A stretch of 64,000 nt of DNA, taken from an uncultured Campylobacterales bacterium. GTDB lineage: Bacteria > Campylobacterota > Campylobacteria > Campylobacterales > Sulfurovaceae. The notes beneath the pieces were generated by a model. That model did no database searches and had not been told where the DNA came from. It saw nothing but the letters and a program-made list of their open reading frames with translations. The stretch lies in assembly GCA_964520575.1 (NCBI GenBank), contig CAZFNK010000008.1, positions 2,458 to 66,457 of the forward strand, in the 5' to 3' direction. The translations under genes were made by a program, and so were the position numbers. Shown in pieces: positions 20,008 to 33,910 of the stretch; positions within the stretch are counted from its first letter, which is position 1; each line of letters begins with the position of its first letter.

Positions 20008-20036
20008 TTGACAATATAAACTTTTTGAGCTATAAT
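20008..20036 (+). promoter_or_regulatory. consensus sigma-70 promoter for the tRNA pair
   Basis: TTGACA (20008-20013), a 17-nt spacer, then TATAAT (20031-20036), about 38 nt upstream of tRNA-Gln. Confidence 0.65.
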
Positions 20037-20073
20037 GCCGTCCACATTCCCAGAGGGTGTATTGATTCTTTGC

Positions 20074-20148
20074 TGGGGTATCGCCAAGCGGTAAGGCAAC
20101 TGGTTTTGGTCCAGTCATTCGGGGGTTCGAATCCCTCTACCCCATCCA
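20074..20148 (+). tRNA. tRNA-Gln (anticodon UUG)
   Basis: Hand-folded cloverleaf: acceptor TGGGGTA/TACCCCA, anticodon stem ACTGG/CCAGT, loop TTTTGGT, T-loop TTCGAAT, encoded CCA. Close to E. coli tRNA-Gln. Confidence 0.9.
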
Positions 20149-20205
20149 TTTGGATTCAGCTGTACTATATTTATTTCAGCTACAATCGACTTCTAAATAT
20201 ACGGA

Positions 20206-20282
<77 letters not shown>

Positions 20283-20342: not shown

Positions 20343-21077
20343 TTAGTGAGCACTCACTGCTTTGAGCGGATCTGGATGTCTGTTTTTCTTTTTTGCACTA
20401 CTTGATGTTTTACTTTTAGCCAATTTAGCAGTCTGAAGATGATCTTTGGGATTTGTGCTGATTGCTTTTAGTGGATTTAGGTGCCTTGGCTTATGCTCAG
20501 GGGGTGTCTGGGCAGCACCAGTGGGCTTCTGATGCATCTTTGGGTTGGTGTTGATTATTCTCGAGGCATGCATCATTCCTGCACCTATTGATCGGCGCAG
20601 AATTTCAGGACTTGTTGCAAAAGCAGGTAGAGTTACCGGCGGTGAGTGATCAGGAGGAGTACCGACTATATCGACTCGCGTCCACTTCTGCGCCCAGGCG
20701 AACATCTTCTGAGCAAAACCGTCCTTCATCCGTATGCAGCCGTGCGAAGCAGGATAATCAGGAGTGGGACCCAGGTGCATAGCTATGCCGTCACGGGTGA
20801 TACGAAGCATATAGTGCATCTTGGCGCCGCCATTTGGCTGCGGCCATAGATTTGACACATGGTCTATATCTTTTTCTCTGACATAAAATGATCCCGTAGG
20901 TGTACGGCGTCCAGGTTTGCCTGTAGAGACTCTGCCGTAGAATTTGACCTTGCCGTCCTGATAGGCTATAGCGACCTGATGGGTTAGATCTACAAGAATA
21001 TATTTGGAAGCAAACAGATAAGACATGCTCCCAAACAGAAACAGAAAAATAAAAACAAATCCTGGTTTTTTGATCAT
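20343..21077 (-). CDS. L,D-transpeptidase (YkuD domain) with basic C-terminal tail
   Basis: HYMLRITRDGIAMHLGPTPDYPASHGCIRM catalytic motif and an N-terminal TM/signal segment. ATG 21077 avoids overlap with the upstream paralogue; the track start is 21101. Confidence 0.85.
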   Translation of the reverse strand: MIKKPGFVFIFLFLFGSMSYLFASKYILVDLTHQVAIAYQDGKVKFYGRVSTGKPGRRTPTGSFYVREKDIDHVSNLWPQPNGGAKMHYMLRITRDGIAMHLGPTPDYPASHGCIRMKDGFAQKMFAWAQKWTRVDIVGTPPDHSPPVTLPAFATSPEILRRSIGAGMMHASRIINTNPKMHQKPTGAAQTPPEHKPRHLNPLKAISTNPKDHLQTAKLAKSKTSSSAKKKNRHPDPLKAVSAH

Positions 21078-21081
21078 AATG

Positions 21082-21783
21082 CTACCGCAATGCCACTTCA
21101 CTCATAGCTTTGAGAGGATCTCTGTGTCTAATGCGTCGAGAACGTTTGCGATGAGTGTTTCTTCTATGCACTTTTCTGCTGCTTCGTACTGTTCTGCTTC
21201 TTTTTGCCTTATTTCGGATGGAGCGGCGAGTGATAGAATGACCCATGAATTCAGCCAATATATCTGTAGCTGTCGCATTGTAAGTGCGGTGTGTACTCCT
21301 TCTGGATGCCCGTCTTGGGATACTCCTTGTAGCATACGTGGATTTATAAGAAGTTCTGTTGACGTAACTTGGAGGTGATCCCACTATGCTGACAGGAGTA
21401 CCTACACTTGCCCATCTGTACATGCGTTGCGCAAAACCGTTTTGGAGTCTGATACAGCCGTGAGAGGCCGGATAGCTGGGTACATACCCAAGATGCATGG
21501 CTATTCCGCTTGAAGTTAGGCGCAGCATATAGTGCATCTTGGCTCCGCCGTTGGGCTCCGGATACTTGCTTGAGACATGATCTATATCTTTCTCTAATAC
21601 CCTGAATCTTCCTGTTGGAGTACGGTGACCGGGCTTGCCTGTAGAGACATTGCCGCAAAATACAGCTCTGCCTCCCTCATATGCACAGGCTCTTTGTTTG
21701 GATAGATCGATCACCACTTTTTTGGCGGACATGGGCGTTGCAGCTAGGACTCCAAGCGCAAGCAAAGCAAATATTTTTTTCAT
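21082..21783 (-). CDS. L,D-transpeptidase (YkuD domain) with Arg/Ser-rich C-terminal tail
   Basis: Signal peptide MKKIFALLALGVLAATPMSA. HYMLRLTSSGIAMHLGYVPSYPASHGCIRL catalytic motif. Confidence 0.85.
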   Translation of the reverse strand: MKKIFALLALGVLAATPMSAKKVVIDLSKQRACAYEGGRAVFCGNVSTGKPGHRTPTGRFRVLEKDIDHVSSKYPEPNGGAKMHYMLRLTSSGIAMHLGYVPSYPASHGCIRLQNGFAQRMYRWASVGTPVSIVGSPPSYVNRTSYKSTYATRSIPRRASRRSTHRTYNATATDILAEFMGHSITRRSIRNKAKRSRTVRSSRKVHRRNTHRKRSRRIRHRDPLKAMSEVALR

Positions 21784-27488: not shown

Positions 27489-27553
27489 GTGGTCGCCTCC
27501 CCTATAGGATTGGCTCCTTCCATCCCCATCTCGGCGATCATCGCTCCGATTGG
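27489..27553 (-). repeat. pre-toxin module remnant R6 (5' third only, AEMGMEG variant)
   Basis: Encodes GAMIAEMGMEGANPIGEAT, then diverges and stops at 27449-27451. DNA is near-identical to 28860-28912. Confidence 0.8.
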
Positions 27554-27571
27554 ATTTTGTTCACATTTATA

Positions 27572-27580
27572 TGCTATAAT
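27572..27580 (+). promoter_or_regulatory. extended -10 element (TGcTATAAT) 6 nt before an ATG (possible leaderless mRNA)
   Basis: TGCTATAAT at 27572-27580 and ATG at 27587. There is no SD in between. Confidence 0.4.
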
Positions 27581-27586
27581 GAGCAC

Positions 27587-27814
27587 ATGGGTAGGATAGA
27601 TAAGGAAAAAGAAGAGATCGGCTGGATGAAGTTTTGGATTGGGGTGAGCGTTGCCTCAATCATGGGTCTGATCAGCTGGTTTGTCAATCATTACGCAGAT
27701 GCAAACAATGTCATTTTGATTATGGATTTGCTGGCGATTGTTGTTTTGGCAGTTTTTATCGTCATGCTCAATCGCACTGCATTACGCAAAATAAAAGAAT
27801 TGGAGAACTTATGA
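27587..27814 (+). CDS. small two-TM membrane protein (opposite strand to toxin array)
   Basis: 75 aa from the ATG (the track gives a TTG start at 27557). TMs WMKFWIGVSVASIMGLISWFV and VILIMDLLAIVVLAVFIVML, then an amphipathic C-terminus. Confidence 0.5.
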   Translation: MGRIDKEKEEIGWMKFWIGVSVASIMGLISWFVNHYADANNVILIMDLLAIVVLAVFIVMLNRTALRKIKELENL

Positions 27815-27903
27815 TTACTGCCATGTATGTTGTGATTTTGGTCGCATTTGTTGGAGCTTTGAGCTACAGCATGATGATGACACTTCGAAGCTTTGATCAG
27901 TAA
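27811..27903 (+). CDS. 30-aa hydrophobic peptide, translationally coupled (ATGA) to the preceding ORF
   Basis: MITAMYVVILVAFVGALSYSMMMTLRSFDQ. Its ATG overlaps the TGA of the upstream ORF at 27811-27814. Confidence 0.3.
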   Translation: MITAMYVVILVAFVGALSYSMMMTLRSFDQ

Positions 27904-27911
27904 TCTCTTTA

Positions 27912-28016
27912 GCCCGAGGCCAGCCCGCCAAAGAGCGCGGCGATGGTGGCCTCTCCTATAGGATTGGCTCCCTGGAGCCCCATCCCGGCGATCATGGCTC
28001 CGCTGAGTTTGGAAGC
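27912..28016 (-). repeat. pre-toxin module remnant R5 (5' two-thirds, AGMGLQG variant, premature stop)
   Basis: Encodes ASKLSGAMIAGMGLQGANPIGEATIAALFGGLASG then TAA. It begins 6 nt after the stop of the preceding immunity gene, as at cassette 3. Confidence 0.85.
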
Positions 28017-28022
28017 TGTTTA

Positions 28023-28343
28023 TTAGCTCTTGAACCATTCAGTGCAGCAGAGCAACCAATAAAAAAAAGCAGGTGCAGCAATTGTGATAATTCGTATAGC
28101 TTTTTTGTTTTTTTCATTAGCAACAATGTCAAAGTTTGGCAAGTCATATACCCACTCAAAACCCCCCTCAACAATTGCAGCAAAAACAACGACGCGCACA
28201 AGAATGTTTTGTGAAAAAAAGACATCGTAATAAAACAATAAATGGGCAAATGCGCTTAAAAATATTGATGCAAGTATGTATTTAATGTTTTGCCCTGCAA
28301 TACGATTCTTTTGCCTCCAGTATTTTATGTGAAATCCACTCAT
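28023..28343 (-). CDS. putative immunity protein of cassette 4 (polytopic membrane protein)
   Basis: 106 aa with about 3 TM segments. ATGA overlap with the cassette-4 toxin stop (28340-28343). AT-rich, no family recognised. Confidence 0.6.
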   Translation of the reverse strand: MSGFHIKYWRQKNRIAGQNIKYILASIFLSAFAHLLFYYDVFFSQNILVRVVVFAAIVEGGFEWVYDLPNFDIVANEKNKKAIRIITIAAPAFFYWLLCCTEWFKS

Positions 28344-28948
28344 TTGATTACCTGATACACACCATATGCCAAATCTAACGTAGTGGGTAGCCAGTGGTAT
28401 TTTGACAACGACATTGCACCTACGCCGAGGGCTAATCCAGTCCTATCATTTTGAAGTGCATCCACACCAATTGCGGCAATACCGAATCTTACCGCCATAC
28501 CTGGAGGAGAAACTGTAGATGCGACCGATAACCCCAACCCAACAACATCACCGCTTTTTTCATTCATCCTTTCTAAGTCCAACACCCTCTCATATGCTTT
28601 TTCATAAGAGATTTTATGTTGCGATCTTCGTCTCATACTTGCTGCAACGATTTTCTGCGTTCGCAACTCTCTTGCTCTTTGTTGCGTGAGTCGATAATAT
28701 TTGTGACCGTTCTTGTATGTGACGGTACTATTTCTCTGTTGATAATCTGCCATTGCATCATTATACAAATAAACCACCATCGCCGTCAAGGCACCCTCGG
28801 CGAAATCCCCGCCCGAGGCCGTCGAGGCCATCCCGCCAAAGAGCGCGGCGATGGTGGCCTCTCCTATAGGATTGACTCCTTCCATCCCCATCTCGGCGAT
28901 CATGGCTCCGGAGAGCTTTTCATTTCCTGCAATCTTTTCTCCCAACAA
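28340..28948 (-). CDS. polymorphic-toxin cassette 4: pre-toxin module + Gly-zipper-rich C-terminal domain
   Basis: KLSGAMIAEMGMEGVNPIGEATIAALFGGMASTASGGDFAEGALTAMVVYLYND followed by a unique 130 aa. The track start is TTG; the first in-frame ATG (28903) lies inside the module. Confidence 0.65.
   Translation of the reverse strand: MLGEKIAGNEKLSGAMIAEMGMEGVNPIGEATIAALFGGMASTASGGDFAEGALTAMVVYLYNDAMADYQQRNSTVTYKNGHKYYRLTQQRARELRTQKIVAASMRRRSQHKISYEKAYERVLDLERMNEKSGDVVGLGLSVASTVSPPGMAVRFGIAAIGVDALQNDRTGLALGVGAMSLSKYHWLPTTLDLAYGVYQVIK
28757..28917 (-). repeat. pre-toxin module copy, cassette 4
   Basis: DNA near-identical to 29677-29845 and 31871-32037 in its 3' part. The 5' part is the AEMGMEG variant. 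Confidence 0.9.
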
Positions 28949-29214
28949 GGTACCTCTTCCACTCTCAAAATAAGAGCAATAAATAATTCAAACAAGATCC
29001 ACAAAATAATTGCAATAATCAGTGCTACCAATAAACTACCAAAAAAGTTTGGAACAATAAAAAATAAAAGCAAAATTATTGAAATCTCCAAACCAGAAAT
29101 TATCGAAAAAAGAAAACGAAAAATTTTTTTTGGACGATAACATTTTTTACTGACAGGATCACGGAATATTTTCCTTCTTCTCAAAAGAATGTACCCATTA
29201 ATACCATACATCAT
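28900..29214 (-). CDS. putative immunity protein of cassette 3 (small membrane protein)
   Basis: 104 aa with 2-3 TM segments. It starts 9 nt after the cassette-3 toxin stop, with AAAGAG upstream. Its last codons run into the next module out of frame. Confidence 0.55.
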   Translation of the reverse strand: MMYGINGYILLRRRKIFRDPVSKKCYRPKKIFRFLFSIISGLEISIILLLFFIVPNFFGSLLVALIIAIILWILFELFIALILRVEEVPCWEKRLQEMKSSPEP

Positions 29215-29223
29215 GATTACTCT

Positions 29224-29823
29224 TTAGTGCAAAGGATTTATTTCATTGTGAATAATATCGGCTGCAGTTCCGGCAGGCTTAATACTTAAAGAGGTAGATG
29301 TATACAAACCTCCTAATATATTGTCGATAAAGCCAATTCCTTTCCCTGTCAAATAGGCGCCAATATAATAGTTTGGCCTTTTGAGCACATCATTACCAAG
29401 TTTTTCTAAAATATCCATCTTGTGGTATTTTAATCCATACATCAAAAGCTTATATTCGGCTTTTGCTTCCATTTTGTACCATCCAATTCTATTGCCGTGT
29501 TGCCAATCTCTGAATCCGGTTGATCTACCCAAATAATCACCATAAGCATACAATGCTTTCGGAGCAGATACAACACCTTCGGCCAAATCTTTTCCACCTT
29601 TTGCGGCATTTTTCAACAACGAGCCTTTGCGCACCCTTCCAAACGCAGCTTTTTCCGCCATCATGTCAGACCAAGCCTCATTATACAAATAAACCACCAT
29701 CGCCGTCAAGGCACCCTCGGCAAAATCCCCGCCAGAGGCCGCAGAGGCCATCCCGCCAAAGAGCGCGGCGATGGTGGCCTCTCCTATAGGATTGGCTCCC
29801 TGGAGCCCCATCCCGGCGATCAT
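29224..29823 (-). CDS. polymorphic-toxin cassette 3: pre-toxin module + unique C-terminal domain
   Basis: MIAGMGLQGANPIGEATIAALFGGMASAASGGDFAEGALTAMVVYLYNE followed by a unique 145 aa. The ATG is the in-module Met; module homology extends upstream to 29845. Confidence 0.65.
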   Translation of the reverse strand: MIAGMGLQGANPIGEATIAALFGGMASAASGGDFAEGALTAMVVYLYNEAWSDMMAEKAAFGRVRKGSLLKNAAKGGKDLAEGVVSAPKALYAYGDYLGRSTGFRDWQHGNRIGWYKMEAKAEYKLLMYGLKYHKMDILEKLGNDVLKRPNYYIGAYLTGKGIGFIDNILGGLYTSTSLSIKPAGTAADIIHNEINPLH

Positions 29824-29845
29824 GGCGCCGCTGAGCTTGGAAGCA
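29677..29845 (-). repeat. pre-toxin module copy, cassette 3 (full length)
   Basis: Starts 6 nt after the stop codon at 29851-29853 of the preceding immunity gene and ends at the GAG (E) of LYNE. Confidence 0.9.
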
Positions 29846-29850
29846 AATTG

Positions 29851-30369
29851 TTAAATATGACTTCTCAAAAAAGCTTTTAAAATTTGTTCTTCTGCTGTAT
29901 TACAATGCACAAAACACGAAAAATATTGTGCATCGTGGTCAGGCACAATTGTTATTGCACCATCATACACAGTAGTCTCACCATTGTATTTATCAAACAC
30001 TTGATCTTTCAATCCCATAATCATGGACATCACATGCTCTTCTTCCGGTTCTGTCACATAAAACAGCATTGATTCTAATATTTCATCGATATGATTAATG
30101 TCAAGCTTCTGATTAAAATATCGAGAAGTCTCTTGAGAATTTCTGCCAAAAAATTTTACGACAGAAAACCTTTCTATCTTCATTTTGTTCGCAACAATGC
30201 TTGTGTAACCATTTTCATAAAAAAAATCAATCAATTCCTTGGCTGTTTTAACTATTTGCTTTTTAATCTCGGTATTGTTATCAGAAAGCGTTGCATAAAT
30301 TATTTCACCATATTCTATTGTCAAAATACATTCTTGGGCGTCAACATTGAAGCAAAAATTTTTTAGCAT
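29851..30369 (-). CDS. putative immunity protein of cassette 2 (cytosolic, acidic)
   Basis: 172 aa from ATG 30369, with no TM. TAATG overlap with the toxin stop and a GGAGG RBS inside the toxin 3' end. Confidence 0.6.
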   Translation of the reverse strand: MLKNFCFNVDAQECILTIEYGEIIYATLSDNNTEIKKQIVKTAKELIDFFYENGYTSIVANKMKIERFSVVKFFGRNSQETSRYFNQKLDINHIDEILESMLFYVTEPEEEHVMSMIMGLKDQVFDKYNGETTVYDGAITIVPDHDAQYFSCFVHCNTAEEQILKAFLRSHI

Positions 30370-30905
30370 TACCAACCTCCTTCATATGGTCTATGGTACT
30401 GCATACTTTTTTGAGAAAGTCCTCGATGATAGTGCCAGTATTTTATATTTTTCCCATATGGCAAATTAAACTTTTTTGATAGCCTTGGAGAAAAGCCATG
30501 CTTTTCAATCCGCAAAACTGGCTGACCTGTTGACTTTAATCTTATCTGCAAAGGCTTGGCTTTTCCAAGAAATTCAAAAGCCAGTTTTCCACCTATAGCC
30601 GCTTCACCAACCATGAACTCAGCTTGATAAATAGGACCTTTTGCATACTCTGGGGCACCATCCAATGCCGCCATGGCACCATTGTATCCTCTTTTGACTG
30701 CCTTTCCTGCATCACGAGCGATACGACCGCTTTTGATCTCGCCATACAGTTTTTGCATAGATTGACCAAGCGTAAGCTCATTATACAAATAAACCACCAT
30801 CGCCGTCAAGGCACCCTCGGCGAAATCTCCTCCAGAGGCCGCTGAGGCCATCCCGCCAAAGAGCGCGGCGATGGTGGCTATTATCCAAGTTGGCAATAAT
30901 CGCAA
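30369..30905 (-). CDS. polymorphic-toxin cassette 2: 5'-truncated pre-toxin module + unique basic C-terminal domain
   Basis: ATIAALFGGMASAASGGDFAEGALTAMVVYLYNE followed by a unique 135 aa ending ...KYWHYHRGLSQKSMQYHRPYEGGW. Only a TTG start; the first in-frame ATG is 30851, inside the module. Confidence 0.6.
   Translation of the reverse strand: MRLLPTWIIATIAALFGGMASAASGGDFAEGALTAMVVYLYNELTLGQSMQKLYGEIKSGRIARDAGKAVKRGYNGAMAALDGAPEYAKGPIYQAEFMVGEAAIGGKLAFEFLGKAKPLQIRLKSTGQPVLRIEKHGFSPRLSKKFNLPYGKNIKYWHYHRGLSQKSMQYHRPYEGGW
30777..30878 (-). repeat. pre-toxin module copy, cassette 2 (3' part only)
   Basis: Homology begins at gccaccatcgcc (ATIA). The ASKLSGAMIAGMGLQGANPIGE part is missing. Confidence 0.9.
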
Positions 30906-30932
30906 AGAAACAGCAAAAGAAAATATTGTTTT

Positions 30933-31421
30933 TTATTTTTTCCTCATCACTTTATTTTGACTGTGGTCATCAAACTCTAAATATGCATGAATAAAGTCTT
31001 TCTCTTGTTTGGATAGATTTTTGTATTCACCGGTATATTTAATCTTCTCAATATATTTAGTTAGCTCAATTTTATCTGCTTCTATTGCATCGGAAAAGTC
31101 TTGTGCAAAATATGCAAAAGGATATTGTTCATAATCCTGTAAGAATTTTACATAATAATAAAATCTCTCTTCAACCGACAACTCTTTAATGCAAGGAAAT
31201 ACAGCTATCATCGAATCCATGGCATAATCATCATAAAAGAGTTTTATATATTTGGATATGGCTATCCATCTGTAATAGCTTGCAAGCCTACTTTTCTTCC
31301 CTATCTCTTTCTCTATCTGCTTGCCTTGATAATATACATCGGTAACAACATAAAGTATGCCCGCAAAAAATGCAACAAATACCAAGCTCAAAAAAAGTAC
31401 TGTTCTTGCATATTTTTTCAT
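30933..31421 (-). CDS. putative immunity protein of cassette 1 (N-terminally membrane-anchored)
   Basis: 162 aa with a single N-terminal TM (VLFLSLVFVAFFAGILYVV). ATGA overlap with the cassette-1 toxin stop (31418-31421). Confidence 0.6.
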   Translation of the reverse strand: MKKYARTVLFLSLVFVAFFAGILYVVTDVYYQGKQIEKEIGKKSRLASYYRWIAISKYIKLFYDDYAMDSMIAVFPCIKELSVEERFYYYVKFLQDYEQYPFAYFAQDFSDAIEADKIELTKYIEKIKYTGEYKNLSKQEKDFIHAYLEFDDHSQNKVMRKK

Positions 31422-32104
31422 TTTATTTCCAATGTTCCATAATAGGTAATGCTATTTTGCCAGTTATACCAATGTGGACCTTGATAAAATTTTATTTGCT
31501 TTGTTTTAGTGTTAAGCAAAAGACTCCTGACTGCTTGCCACTGTTTAAGATTATTTTTAATCGTTACACATCCAAAACTCAAAGCACCGTTATATAATCT
31601 TATTCCCGATCTTCCATTATGGTAATCATCAATTCTGCCATCGTTATATAACAATGAAAACCAACCTGGATGCTTTTGGGGATTTACATTATCTGTTATC
31701 AAGTATTTCCCTGATGGAGCAGCCTTCTGCCTGACACCACCATCGGTCACAGCAACTCGGCCATGTGCATCAACCTTTCCACCCGTAAAAGCATCTACGA
31801 CTACATGTTCACCCGTGTCATTGTCAGCCATATAAAGTTTCTCTTCTTTCGTGTCAAGTACCGCACTGACCTCATTATACAAATAAACCACCATCGCCGT
31901 CAAGGCACCCTCAGCAAAATCTCCTCCAGATGCCGCTGAGGCCATCCCGCCAAAGAGCGCGGCAATGGTGGCCTCTCCTATAGGATTGGCTCCCTGGAGC
32001 CCCATCCCGGCGATCATGGCTCCGCTGAGTTTGGAGGCGATGGCGGAGATGAAGCCGGTCTTGAAATCTCCGCCTCTAAGAACCGTGATGAGCCCCTGGG
32101 TCAT
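31418..32104 (-). CDS. polymorphic-toxin cassette 1: longer N-terminal stub + pre-toxin module + L,D-transpeptidase-like (DUF2778/Tlde1-like) C-terminal domain
   Basis: ...GGDFKTGFISAIASKLSGAMIAGMGLQGANPIGEATIAALFGGMASAASGGDFAEGALTAMVVYLYNE, then a CT containing GKYLITD, HPGWFSLL and GRSGIRLYNGALSFGCVTI. The frame stays open upstream of the ATG to 32227. Confidence 0.65.
   Translation of the reverse strand: MTQGLITVLRGGDFKTGFISAIASKLSGAMIAGMGLQGANPIGEATIAALFGGMASAASGGDFAEGALTAMVVYLYNEVSAVLDTKEEKLYMADNDTGEHVVVDAFTGGKVDAHGRVAVTDGGVRQKAAPSGKYLITDNVNPQKHPGWFSLLYNDGRIDDYHNGRSGIRLYNGALSFGCVTIKNNLKQWQAVRSLLLNTKTKQIKFYQGPHWYNWQNSITYYGTLEIK
31871..32037 (-). repeat. pre-toxin module copy, cassette 1 (full length)
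   Basis: Near-identical to 29677-29845. Upstream of it, unique GC-rich coding-like sequence continues to about 32190. Confidence 0.9.
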
Positions 32105-32236
32105 TCCGTGGCTCAGAGCCAGCCCGAAGTTCCAGCCATGCGTCCCGAAGGCCTCGGGCAGTCCGCTGGCAAACGAAGAATTGATCGAATAAGCAAGATG
32201 TTGCAGTATAATTTTATAATAATTTATCTAATGATA

Positions 32237-32710
32237 TTATATCCTGCTTTGACTCTTCAATGCAATTGACAGTTTCTCTAATAAAGTCTTATCCAATTTT
32301 TTTCTTATTTTTTCAAATCTTGAGGTGGCTTTCTCATACTCCCGATTAGTAAAAAAAATCTTAATATTTTGTTTGCGGATAAATTTGTCAAAATTATTTT
32401 TGTTATATGATGAATACACAGTATTGCTTTTCTTATCGATGACAATATAGCTTAACGCTTTATCAAAAAAAATTTTTTCGTCAGGGCAATTAAAATATCT
32501 TAAAGGATACCTTATAGCAATAATGTAATTATCATTATATTTTACATCAAGGATATAGCTTAAATGTAATTTTTTATTTGCGAACGATCTTATTGCATCA
32601 TAGCCACTATAGTATAAAAAGTAATCTCCCTTCCCAAGTTTGCCCTCATTGTAATACCAATAATGCAATGAGGCAAACGCTAAGATAATAACAATAAATA
32701 TTTTCTTCAT
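32237..32710 (-). CDS. orphan immunity-like secreted/membrane-anchored protein
   Basis: 157 aa, N-terminal hydrophobic segment MKKIFIVIILAFASL, very AT-rich, no family recognised. Its ATG lies 2 bp from the IS end. Confidence 0.5.
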   Translation of the reverse strand: MKKIFIVIILAFASLHYWYYNEGKLGKGDYFLYYSGYDAIRSFANKKLHLSYILDVKYNDNYIIAIRYPLRYFNCPDEKIFFDKALSYIVIDKKSNTVYSSYNKNNFDKFIRKQNIKIFFTNREYEKATSRFEKIRKKLDKTLLEKLSIALKSQSRI

Positions 32711-32712
32711 AA

Positions 32713-32750
32713 GGTAATCCCCCCATTTCCCAACCCCACTAAAAGTAGAA
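32713..32750. repeat. IS terminal inverted repeat (orfB-proximal end)
   Basis: GGTAATCCCCCCATTTCCCAACCCCACTAAAAGTAGAA. The terminal GGTAATCCC and subterminal AAAAGTAGAA match the rc of the other end. Confidence 0.75.
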
Positions 32751-33578
32751 TTAGGCTACAAGAGCCAACTTCTGGGCAGGAGTGATCCCGCCTATTGCCG
32801 TATTGGGTCGTTCGTTATTATACACCCAAAGCCATTTGGTTGCAAACTCTCTCACCTCCTCGATAGAATTAAATATGTATTGATTGAGCCATTCATACCG
32901 TACAGTACGGTTATATCTTTCGATATAAGCATTCTGCTGCGGTTTGCCAGGTTGAATATATTGCAAGACTATATTTTGCTTTGTTGCCCAATTTTGCAAT
33001 GCTGCCGAAATATACTCAGGACCGTTATCACACCGTATGATCTTTGGCTTTCCTCTCCATTCAATGATTCTCTCTAAAGCTCTTATCACTCTTTGTGAAG
33101 GCAAAGAGAAATCAGCTTCAATCTCCAGTCCTTCACGGTTATAATCATCATTCACATTAAAGAGCCTGAAGCTTCTGCCGTCACCGAGATTATCATGCAT
33201 AAAATCCATAGACCATACTTCATTAGGCATAGAAGACACACTAAGAGGTTCCGGTGTTTCGCGTTTGATACGCTTTTTAGGCTTGATGCGCATATTCAGT
33301 TCCGGCTCTTTGTATATCCTGTACACCCTTTTATGATTCCATCCATATCCTTTGACATTACGAAGATATAAAAAACAGAGTCCAAAGCCCCAGTTTTTTT
33401 GATTATGTGTCAGACGTATGAGCCAATCTGCTATCAGTTCATTTTCTTCATTGAGTTTGGATTCATATCTATAACAATACTCACTGATCTTAAAAGCTTT
33501 ACAGGCTAAACGGATCGTAATCTGTTTTTCTTCAACCGCTTTGACAGCAATCTTTTTACGCAAAGATGGCTTTACCAC
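32751..33578 (-). CDS. IS3-family transposase OrfB (DDE integrase core)
   Basis: An rve-type core (WSMDFMHD..., CDNGPEYIS..., [16 protein letters not shown]). It has no own ATG and is entered by a -1 frameshift from orfA. Confidence 0.9.
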
Positions 33579-33838
33579 TTTTTTTCGAGTGCCTCCTGTA
33601 CTATTTCTGCTTTAAGACGCTCTTCTGCGTACATCTTTTTTAAACGACGGTTCTCCTCTTCAAGCTCTTTAAGTTTTTTCATCAAAGAGGCATCCATCCC
33701 TCCATATTTACTACGCCAGTTATAAAAAGTAGCACTGCTTATACCGTGCTCTCTACAAAGCTCTGGTACCGGTATACCACTCTCTGCCTGTTTTAAAATT
33801 GCCAATATCTGCGTATCGCTAAATCGCGACTTCTTCAT
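33572..33838 (-). CDS. IS3-family transposase OrfA (HTH)
   Basis: [44 protein letters not shown] plus a leucine-zipper-like end. GGAG RBS. Confidence 0.9.
33578..33585 (-). promoter_or_regulatory. programmed -1 ribosomal frameshift site (A AAA AAG)
   Basis: Minus-strand GAAAAAAAGTGG at the end of orfA. Slipping -1 reads ...[14 protein letters not shown], which is the OrfB N-terminus. Confidence 0.75.
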
Positions 33839-33870
33839 AGAAAATCTCCTTACAATATTTTACTGGAATT

Positions 33871-33910
33871 TTCTACTTTTGGGAAGATTGGGTTTTTGGG
33901 AGGGATTACC
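33871..33910. repeat. IS terminal inverted repeat (orfA-proximal end)
   Basis: The rc reads GGTAATCCCTCCCAAAAACCCAATCTTCCCAAAAGTAGAA. Confidence 0.75.

Follow-up and report, generated by a model that had tools for sequence, protein, structure and literature searches.

Arrays of orphan toxin/immunity cassettes are a well-known route by which contact-dependent weapons are diversified, and orphan Rhs cassettes are a textbook case. Salmonella, E. coli and Serratia carry clusters of orphan rhs-CT/rhsI pairs (CT, the variable C-terminal toxin region) on the downstream side of their rhs genes (Poole 2011, PMC3150448; Koskiniemi 2014, PMC3967940). In Salmonella, it was shown experimentally that an orphan rhs-CT recombines with the main rhs gene through shared homology, where the CT starts at the motif DPxGL (PMC3967940). 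In the contact-dependent growth inhibition (CDI) system of Burkholderia, BcpA is a TpsA protein of ~3100 amino acids (aa), which is exported by BcpB and carries a CT of ~350 aa (PMC3415462).

The DNA considered here, referred to as the window, is a stretch of 64,000 nucleotides (nt) from an uncultured Campylobacterales bacterium (contig CAZFNK010000008.1, positions 2,458 to 66,457). The region from 27.49 to 32.19 kb of the window is quite probably an orphan array of Rhs-type C-terminal toxin/immunity cassettes, four intact and two remaining as remnants, in which a repeated module would be the 3' end of a DUF637-like segment that follows the Rhs core. As in the orphan rhs-CT/rhsI clusters, 5'-truncated gene ends stand in tandem, each with a conserved rhs piece, a variable toxin and a small immunity gene, and share homology that permits recombination onto a full-length gene. 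The CT of those clusters begins right at PxxxxDPxGL, whereas the junction in the family of the window lies ~188 aa later, after the DUF637-like segment; moreover, those clusters adjoin rhs genes, whereas the array in the window has no adjacent parent rhs gene. An earlier reading of this DNA made from its letters alone, the original prediction, had suggested that the module may be a pre-toxin recombination handle whose boundary is related to that of Burkholderia-type CdiA/BcpA systems. Its logic of a conserved pre-toxin handle is retained in the following, and its CdiA/BcpA assignment and the homology of its LYN motif are given up.

Repeat finding, alignment and pattern searches in the 64-kb window placed all six module copies or fragments on the minus strand, in agreement within 1 nt with the original prediction. 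The copies, together with the stub preceding the first of them, are as follows.

32039-32191, minus strand: stub of 153 nt (51 codons) of the Rhs post-core DUF637-like segment, upstream of the cassette 1 module and 5'-truncated
31871-32038, minus strand: module of cassette 1, 168 nt, ASKLSG...YLYNE (alignment and pattern searches)
30777-30878, minus strand: module of cassette 2, 3' 102 nt only (alignment and pattern searches)
29677-29844, minus strand: module of cassette 3, 168 nt (alignment)
28757-28918, minus strand: module of cassette 4, with the second 5' allele, AEMGMEGV, and the end YLYND (alignment)
27912-28016, minus strand: remnant R5, 102 nt from the 5' part of the module with an in-frame TAA (27912-27914) directly after them
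approximately 27489-27553, minus strand: remnant R6, the 5' third of the module only, with the cassette 4-type allele

A 38-nt string of the module occurs exactly four times in the window with 0 mismatches, and the cctataggattg(g/a)ctcc region and a third core string of 33 nt occur five times each. Dinucleotide-preserving shuffles gave 0.00 expected matches per pattern, and no additional copy was found in the 64-kb window. Over the last 102 nt of the module, the ungapped identity among cassettes 1 to 4 is 0.90-0.96; in the flanks it falls to the random level, 0.25-0.33 over the 150 nt downstream of the module and 0.20-0.32 over the 150 nt upstream. YLYN(E/D) forms the end of the module in all four full cassettes. 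At the 5' end (sites 32-45), cassettes 1 and 3 and R5 share one version and cassette 4 and R6 the other, and the module starts 6 nt after the preceding immunity stop codon in cassette 3 (gap 29845-29850) and R5 (gap 28017-28022). The comparison of the module with its surroundings thus reproduced what the original prediction had described, namely the four- and fivefold repeated strings, the unshared DNA on either side, the two 5' alleles, the 6-nt spacing and the premature TAA in R5.

The module is also GC-rich within AT-rich cassettes, as had been noted: its GC content is 0.58-0.62, against 0.37-0.41 in the next 600 nt and 0.438 in the whole window. The GC content at third codon positions (GC3) is 0.61-0.79 in the module and stub, against 0.45-0.54 in housekeeping genes and 0.29-0.38 in the cassette genes. 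Because GC3 is raised too, the GC-richness is not merely an effect of Gly/Ala codons; a foreign parent gene and GC-biased gene conversion are possible causes of the high GC3. The stub has a GC content of 0.58 and a GC3 of 0.75, and the GC profile falls at ~32190, upstream of which the DNA is unrelated and AT-rich.

Past the module, the cassettes carry four mutually unrelated CTs of 135-150 aa, each followed by an unrelated open reading frame (ORF) of 104-174 aa, which overlaps the toxin ORF or lies at most 28 nt away. In each of the four cassettes, both the toxin ORF and the immunity ORF are intact.

31418-31870, minus strand: predicted toxin domain of cassette 1, 150 aa, resembling Tlde1, an effector with an L,D-transpeptidase fold (sub-threshold Pfam match)
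30933-31421, minus strand: putative immunity gene of cassette 1, 162 aa, N-terminal hydrophobic helix, 4-nt overlap with the toxin stop codon; role assigned from position
30369-30776, minus strand: predicted toxin domain of cassette 2, 135 aa, no family match
29851-30375, minus strand: putative immunity gene of cassette 2, 174 aa, soluble
29224-29676, minus strand: predicted toxin domain of cassette 3, 150 aa
28900-29214, minus strand: putative immunity gene of cassette 3, 104 aa, with two hydrophobic helices and a 3' end that runs into the start of the cassette 4 module
28340-28756, minus strand: predicted toxin domain of cassette 4, 138 aa, C-terminal half Gly-rich and hydrophobic
28023-28343, minus strand: putative immunity gene of cassette 4, 106 aa, multi-pass hydrophobic

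The cassette 1 toxin matches the Pfam domain Tlde1_dom (PF10908) with E 4.2e-6 and 27.6 bits, below the cut-off of 30.1. Its sequence shows an H-x15-SFGC motif, and PF10908 is the precomputed annotation of the protein P0168. The single-sequence AlphaFold model of this toxin, with a mean pLDDT (predicted local distance difference test) of 36.5, was too poor for a check of the fold. In the family searches of the window proteins, no family match was obtained for the putative immunity protein of cassette 1. At 20343-21783 on the minus strand, ~10 kb from the cassette with the L,D-transpeptidase-like toxin, two neighbouring genes that overlap slightly encode YkuD-type L,D-transpeptidases, both with a long basic tail at the C-terminus.

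The family to which the module belongs was determined from its relatives. The 107-aa stub plus module was the query of an exhaustive phmmer (HMMER) search, in which 1.84 billion cluster representatives yielded 586 protein clusters at E ≤ 1e-3 and 24 at E ≤ 1e-10; the domain and junction results for the relatives hold among the matches listed of these 586 clusters (436 stand outside the list). Word-indexed homologue searches returned almost only the proteins of the window itself. In all six matches of 2.2-3.1 kaa (thousand aa), SpvB and FG-GAP-like domains occur together with RHS repeats, and two of the six have TcdB_toxin_midN as well; three further matches of ~1 kaa contain RHS repeats. Neither a two-partner-secretion (TPS) domain nor a haemagglutinin-repeat domain was found in any of the nine large relatives scanned. 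The NCBIfam model Rhs_assc_core (TIGR03696) exceeded its cut-off in each of the 8 relatives tested, among them the product of a complete 985-aa gene at metagenome locus L004, which has a small ORF behind it. In the tblastn search of plasmids, a single record was obtained, a Janthinobacterium protein annotated as 'RHS repeat protein', which is Rhs_assc_core-positive and likewise followed by a small downstream ORF. The large secreted-type proteins with the module at the pre-toxin position, whose existence the original prediction had presupposed, were thus found among Rhs/YD-repeat relatives. The stub itself shows 83% aa identity over 100 aa to P0002, a protein with Rhs_assc_core and the full linker.

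The sequence search of the PDB with the module profile gave 0 matches at E ≤ 10, the scan of viral contigs gave no relatives, and the scan of genome contigs gave one distant remnant only, in a metagenome-assembled genome (MAG) of Campylobacteraceae (L001).

The position of the boundary relative to the Rhs core was counted in the 41 matches with at least 260 residues before the boundary. Of the 41, 38 contain the motif at the end of the Rhs core, NP..DPxG, and the stretch from it down to the boundary has a median length of 188 aa, with a range of 151-214 aa; the tail past the boundary had a median length of 149 aa. Across ~140 matches, the junction ...GG(T/L)AS.A.GG.F..GA..A..V.L(F/Y)N(D/E/Q) is conserved and is then followed by unrelated sequence. 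This collapse of conservation directly after L(F/Y)N(x) bears out the view that the module is a conserved pre-toxin segment marking the switch to variable toxin/immunity DNA. Unlike in textbook Rhs proteins, the variable junction of the relatives is thus not at PxxxxDPxG(L/H) but a median of 188 aa later. As judged by comparison with these relatives, the module makes up the final 56 residues of a ~190-aa conserved segment between the Rhs autoproteolysis motif (NPxxxxDPxGH) and the toxin. The segment is Gly/Ala-rich with a hydrophobic stretch at its start. From the same alignment, YLYN(E/D) of the window is read as one spelling of a widespread boundary, hhHL(F/Y)N(D/E/Q), with hydrophobic residues before it, for which the family consensus is LFN, not LYN. 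The window stub starts ~107 aa before the boundary, and the locus contains no RHS/YD repeats or Rhs core, which is the state expected of orphan cassettes.

The conserved segment shows a weak similarity to DUF637. The stub plus module of the window matches Pfam DUF637 (PF04830) at 15-18 bits (E 0.002-0.02) over profile positions 95-168, where the gathering score is 26.6. At E ≤ 0.01, 26 of 42 module homologues match, with a best E of 1.6e-7 and always in the same part of the model, and the longer post-core region of locus L005 is colinear with DUF637 positions 23-168. None of ten composition-preserving shuffles matched DUF637 even at E ≤ 0.1. Because the individually seen scores all lie below the Pfam gathering cut-off, the post-core segment is termed DUF637-like, and not a DUF637 member; the profile matches suggest remote homology. 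In the literature, DUF637 ('PT637') is listed among the pre-toxin domains of type V secretion system (T5SS) toxins (PMC3482391, PMC4725963). A distant evolutionary link of the segment to the pre-toxin regions of CdiA is therefore plausible at the level of profiles, although not via the LYN motif. The original prediction had named several profiles for the stub plus module; the weak, sub-threshold DUF637 similarity emerged, and no match to PT-VENN, haemagglutinin repeats or MafB was obtained.

Other candidates for the module were rejected. The pre-toxin domains PT-VENN and PT-TG gave no Pfam matches, and the VENN motif is absent from the window cassettes. No similarity to a MafB-like system was found. 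The end of a mobile element or a non-coding repeat was also rejected, since the module reads in frame with intact ORFs and varies mostly at synonymous sites.

Exchange of toxins at the boundary is indirectly supported by related loci, which were searched for with a narrower module alignment (A3). A sister lineage with the module end VVWLYND is represented by seven loci, drawn from three related metagenome samples, and no two of them have the same CT; their identity is 69-99% over the 100 nt that lead up to the boundary and 22-46% over the 100 nt that follow. Loci of this lineage cover the whole range of arrangements. At L004 (123-3080), the module is carried by the full-length 985-aa Rhs-like gene, which has a coiled-coil N-terminus. 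L005 (271-1470, 2405-3610, 4015-6783) comprises an orphan starting inside the Rhs core, an IS110-family transposase-like ORF, judged as such from its sequence, and a second rhs gene, which ends in a different C-terminus and lacks the module. Homologues of two of the cassette toxins occur behind diverged modules in other organisms: the toxin of cassette 3 is 34% identical to that of L001 and 40% to that of P0005, and the toxin of cassette 4 is 42% identical over 120 aa to P0034 and 38% to L006.

Within the window, third codon positions account for 16 of the 26 variable sites among the module copies, and all four gametes are present at the site pairs 114/123 and 117/123. As far as can be read from the aligned copies, these pairs indicate gene conversion or recombination inside the module, and the mosaic structure described by the original prediction is thereby confirmed. 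The role of the module as a recombination handle is supported indirectly, by the same breakpoint with seven toxins in seven metagenomic loci and by the mosaic copies in the window.

In the orphan-array reading, each cassette would be the 3' end of an rhs-family gene, starting within the ~190-aa conserved segment and continuing through the module to the boundary (V/H)L(Y/F)N(D/E), the variable toxin of 135-150 aa and the small immunity gene. The module is the only homology common to the cassettes and would therefore be the substrate for RecA-type recombination or gene conversion. By such recombination, an orphan toxin/immunity pair could be transferred by exchange to a full-length rhs gene at another site of the genome, or new cassettes could be stacked, older ones being pushed downstream with 5'-truncated modules. 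The conserved segment would be cleaved off along with the toxin and may aid its passage across the target membrane. Since the window contains no rhs gene, and an IS3 element and an AT-rich ORF are found in its place, the array may now function chiefly as a reserve of immunity genes and spare toxins.

Several points weigh against this reading. We infer the toxin and immunity functions of the cassettes, and the sole family match is the sub-threshold one of cassette 1. The 64-kb window contains no RHS repeats, Rhs core or secretion apparatus, and a recombination partner in this genome is therefore hypothetical. In addition, simple displacement models predict neither the invariance of the last 41 nt nor the high GC3 of the module.

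The invariance of the 3' end can be viewed together with a promoter-like site that lies within it, at the following positions.

31874-31903, 30780-30809, 29680-29709 and 28760-28789, minus strand: near-consensus promoter-like site of the sigma-70 type, TTGACG-18-TATAAT, in the invariant 3' end of the modules of cassettes 1 to 4

These sites are the best promoter-like matches in the region, with 11 of 12 positions matching TTGACA-N18-TATAAT identically in the four cassettes, where TTGACG forms Leu-Thr codons and TATAAT the Tyr-Asn codons of YLYN. It is possible, if doubtful, that the site is an internal promoter, for whose sake the 3' end is kept invariant and from which each toxin-CT/immunity pair is transcribed independently of any parent gene, so that orphan immunity genes, and perhaps short toxins, would be expressed in the manner of a toxin-antitoxin system; such a role is compatible with the orphan-array reading. 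On both strands of the whole window, 7 sites with at least 11 of 12 matches were found, against 1.4 expected, 3 of them outside the modules. A perfect 12/12 site, TTGACA-17-TATAAT, is located just upstream of a tRNA-Gln/tRNA-Met pair (20008-20282, plus strand), and its position suggests that the organism uses canonical -35/-10 promoters. Module positions 127-167 (41 nt) have 0 variable sites in the four copies, against 10 at positions 67-126. The final 18 nt switch to AT-rich codons (GC 0.17-0.22) within the otherwise GC3-rich module, and in cassette 4 an ATG is found 6 nt past the -10 hexamer. However, the four copies count as one independent sequence and the test is post hoc, TAT-AAT is simply the AT-preferred spelling of Tyr-Asn, and in the sister lineage, where TATAAT is mostly kept, the -35 element matches at only 3 of 6 positions, two loci having TGGAA(C/T) instead.

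The promoter-like site and the DUF637 similarity can also be combined into a wider reading, which we regard as rather unlikely. The post-core segment would be portable, a domain for delivery or of the pre-toxin kind that is related to DUF637 and common to CdiA of the T5SS and to cocoon-type Rhs toxins, with a second polymorphism boundary, hhHL(F/Y)N(D/E), ~190 aa past DPxGL, and in this lineage its last codons would act as a built-in promoter by which orphan pairs are transcribed without the parent gene. The embedded promoter, if true, would explain both the continued expression of orphan immunity genes and the nucleotide-invariant 3' end of the handle.

The surroundings of the array bear on another explanation, in which the locus is decaying debris left after the loss of an rhs gene mediated by an insertion sequence (IS), and the likeness of the modules reflects recent descent or duplication with no current role. 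On the minus strand, from 5' to 3', the order is the IS3 element, a DUF3997 ORF, the stub with cassette 1, cassettes 2, 3 and 4, R5, R6, a lipoprotein gene and valS. The features upstream of the stub are as follows.

32729-33892, minus strand: IS3-family element, with orfA at 33572-33838, orfB at 32751-33578 and imperfect 22-nt terminal inverted repeats; it bounds the array
32237-32710, minus strand: ORF of 157 aa immediately upstream of the stub, GC 0.27, with a hydrophobic helix at the N-terminus and a DUF3997 match of E 1.6e-6 and 28.8 bits (cut-off 25)

The IS3 element and this unrelated, AT-rich ORF occupy the place expected for the parent rhs gene, as loss through an IS would predict. 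Its position and composition suggest that the DUF3997 ORF may be an orphan immunity gene whose cassette was lost. Decay would also be consistent with the 5'-truncation of cassette 1, the 66 nt missing from the module of cassette 2, the fragmentary R5 and R6, and the premature TAA of R5, and a comparable IS-adjacent stub of the conserved segment exists in another genome (L010, GCA_050292965.1), where it adjoins an ISL3 transposase. On the other side, the four toxin and four immunity ORFs are intact, and the modules differ from each other mainly at synonymous sites, in agreement with purifying selection on the peptide. Furthermore, the cassettes are wholly different outside the module, and are hence not recent duplicates of each other. 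We consider that the locus is unlikely to be such debris.

Between R5 and R6 (~360 nt), two small ORFs at 27557-27903 (an 85-aa membrane-like one and a 30-aa one) lie on the plus strand, opposite to the array, and may be an inserted or inverted fragment. The 6-kb island as a whole is flanked by valS and by the gene for the binding protein of a thiamine-type ABC transporter. The remainder of the window is housekeeping, with clpX, mreBC, carB, acs, ribBA, purL, valS, a thiamine-type ABC transporter, hemH, histidine kinases, queC, fbp and gap, and no rhs, type VI secretion (T6SS), TpsB (cdiB/bcpB-like) or TcA gene was found in the 64 kb.

The original assignment, according to which the cassettes are orphan CdiA/BcpA-CT modules of Burkholderia-type two-partner-secretion CDI and YLYN(E/D) is a version of Nx(E/Q)LYN, is very improbable. 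It would account for the tripeptide L-Y-N at the conserved/variable junction and for the weak similarity to the C-terminal half of DUF637, a listed T5SS pre-toxin domain. However, all nine large relatives are Rhs proteins without TPS or Fil_haemagg domains, the Rhs core lies 151-214 aa before the boundary in 38 of 41 relatives, and no cdiB/bcpB-like gene is present in the window. The pre-toxin of BcpA from B. thailandensis E264 is represented by the 50 residues before Nx(E/Q)LYN, ...AGGAAAGAVAGGGSSSGALAGAGSAVNNELYN|RQLH (Fig. S1, Anderson 2012, PMC3415462). When the BcpA stretch ...GAGSAVNNELYN was compared by hhalign with the module profile A2 (42 members), the probability was 0.2% with E 0.27, over the final 10 columns only. 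The CTs of the window, 135-150 aa (family median 149), also differ in length from the ~350-aa CT of BcpA. Together with the LFN consensus of the family, these comparisons of profile and length are against both CdiA/BcpA as the parent family and LYN as its boundary; at the level of the motif, the likeness to BcpA is superficial and coincidental.

The locus itself adds little, as it is largely an ordinary orphan toxin-cassette array. What sets it apart is the displaced boundary and the ~190-aa conserved domain carried along with the toxin. The 586 cluster representatives constitute a large unannotated Rhs group with the conserved/variable junction after a ~190-aa DUF637-like segment, not at DPxGL, and annotation or toxin mining that cuts at DPxGL would mis-delimit such Rhs toxins. 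Nor would pre-toxin regions of the DUF637 type be confined to the T5SS. The displaced-boundary Rhs variant and its motif were not found described in the searchable literature; they may be catalogued in domain-architecture resources.

Compared with other known systems, the array shares with the mafB-CT orphans of Neisseria the arrangement of alternative toxin/immunity cassettes, each after a short conserved fragment. MafB, however, has an N-terminal DUF1020 domain (listed as MAFB-N) and no Rhs core, no similarity to the window module was found, and its boundary motif differs from that of the module. Burkholderia-type CDI (BcpA) resembles the window in the L-Y-N motif at the switch to the polymorphic toxin, the Gly/Ala-rich stretch before it and the immunity gene after it, whereas the context of the motif is NNELYN in BcpA and AMVVYLYN in the window, with no detectable profile similarity. 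With E. coli-type CdiA (DUF637/PT-VENN), the window shares the weak colinear DUF637 similarity and the logic of a conserved pre-toxin handle; unlike CdiA, the window cassettes have no PT-VENN match, VENN motif, haemagglutinin repeats or TPS domain.

The large relatives of the module are fused TcB/TcC-like proteins (SpvB, FG-GAP, TcdB_midN), and not PAAR/VgrG-linked Rhs proteins as in the orphan rhs-CT systems. Like the TcB/TcC cocoon proteins of Tc toxins, these relatives combine SpvB, FG-GAP, TcdB_toxin_midN and RHS repeats, and have an aspartyl autoproteolysis motif upstream of a variable C-terminal cargo. In TcB/TcC terms, no TcA-like gene was seen in the window, and the cargo here differs in carrying a ~190-aa conserved N-terminal domain and in being accompanied by immunity genes, which points to an antibacterial rather than an insecticidal use.

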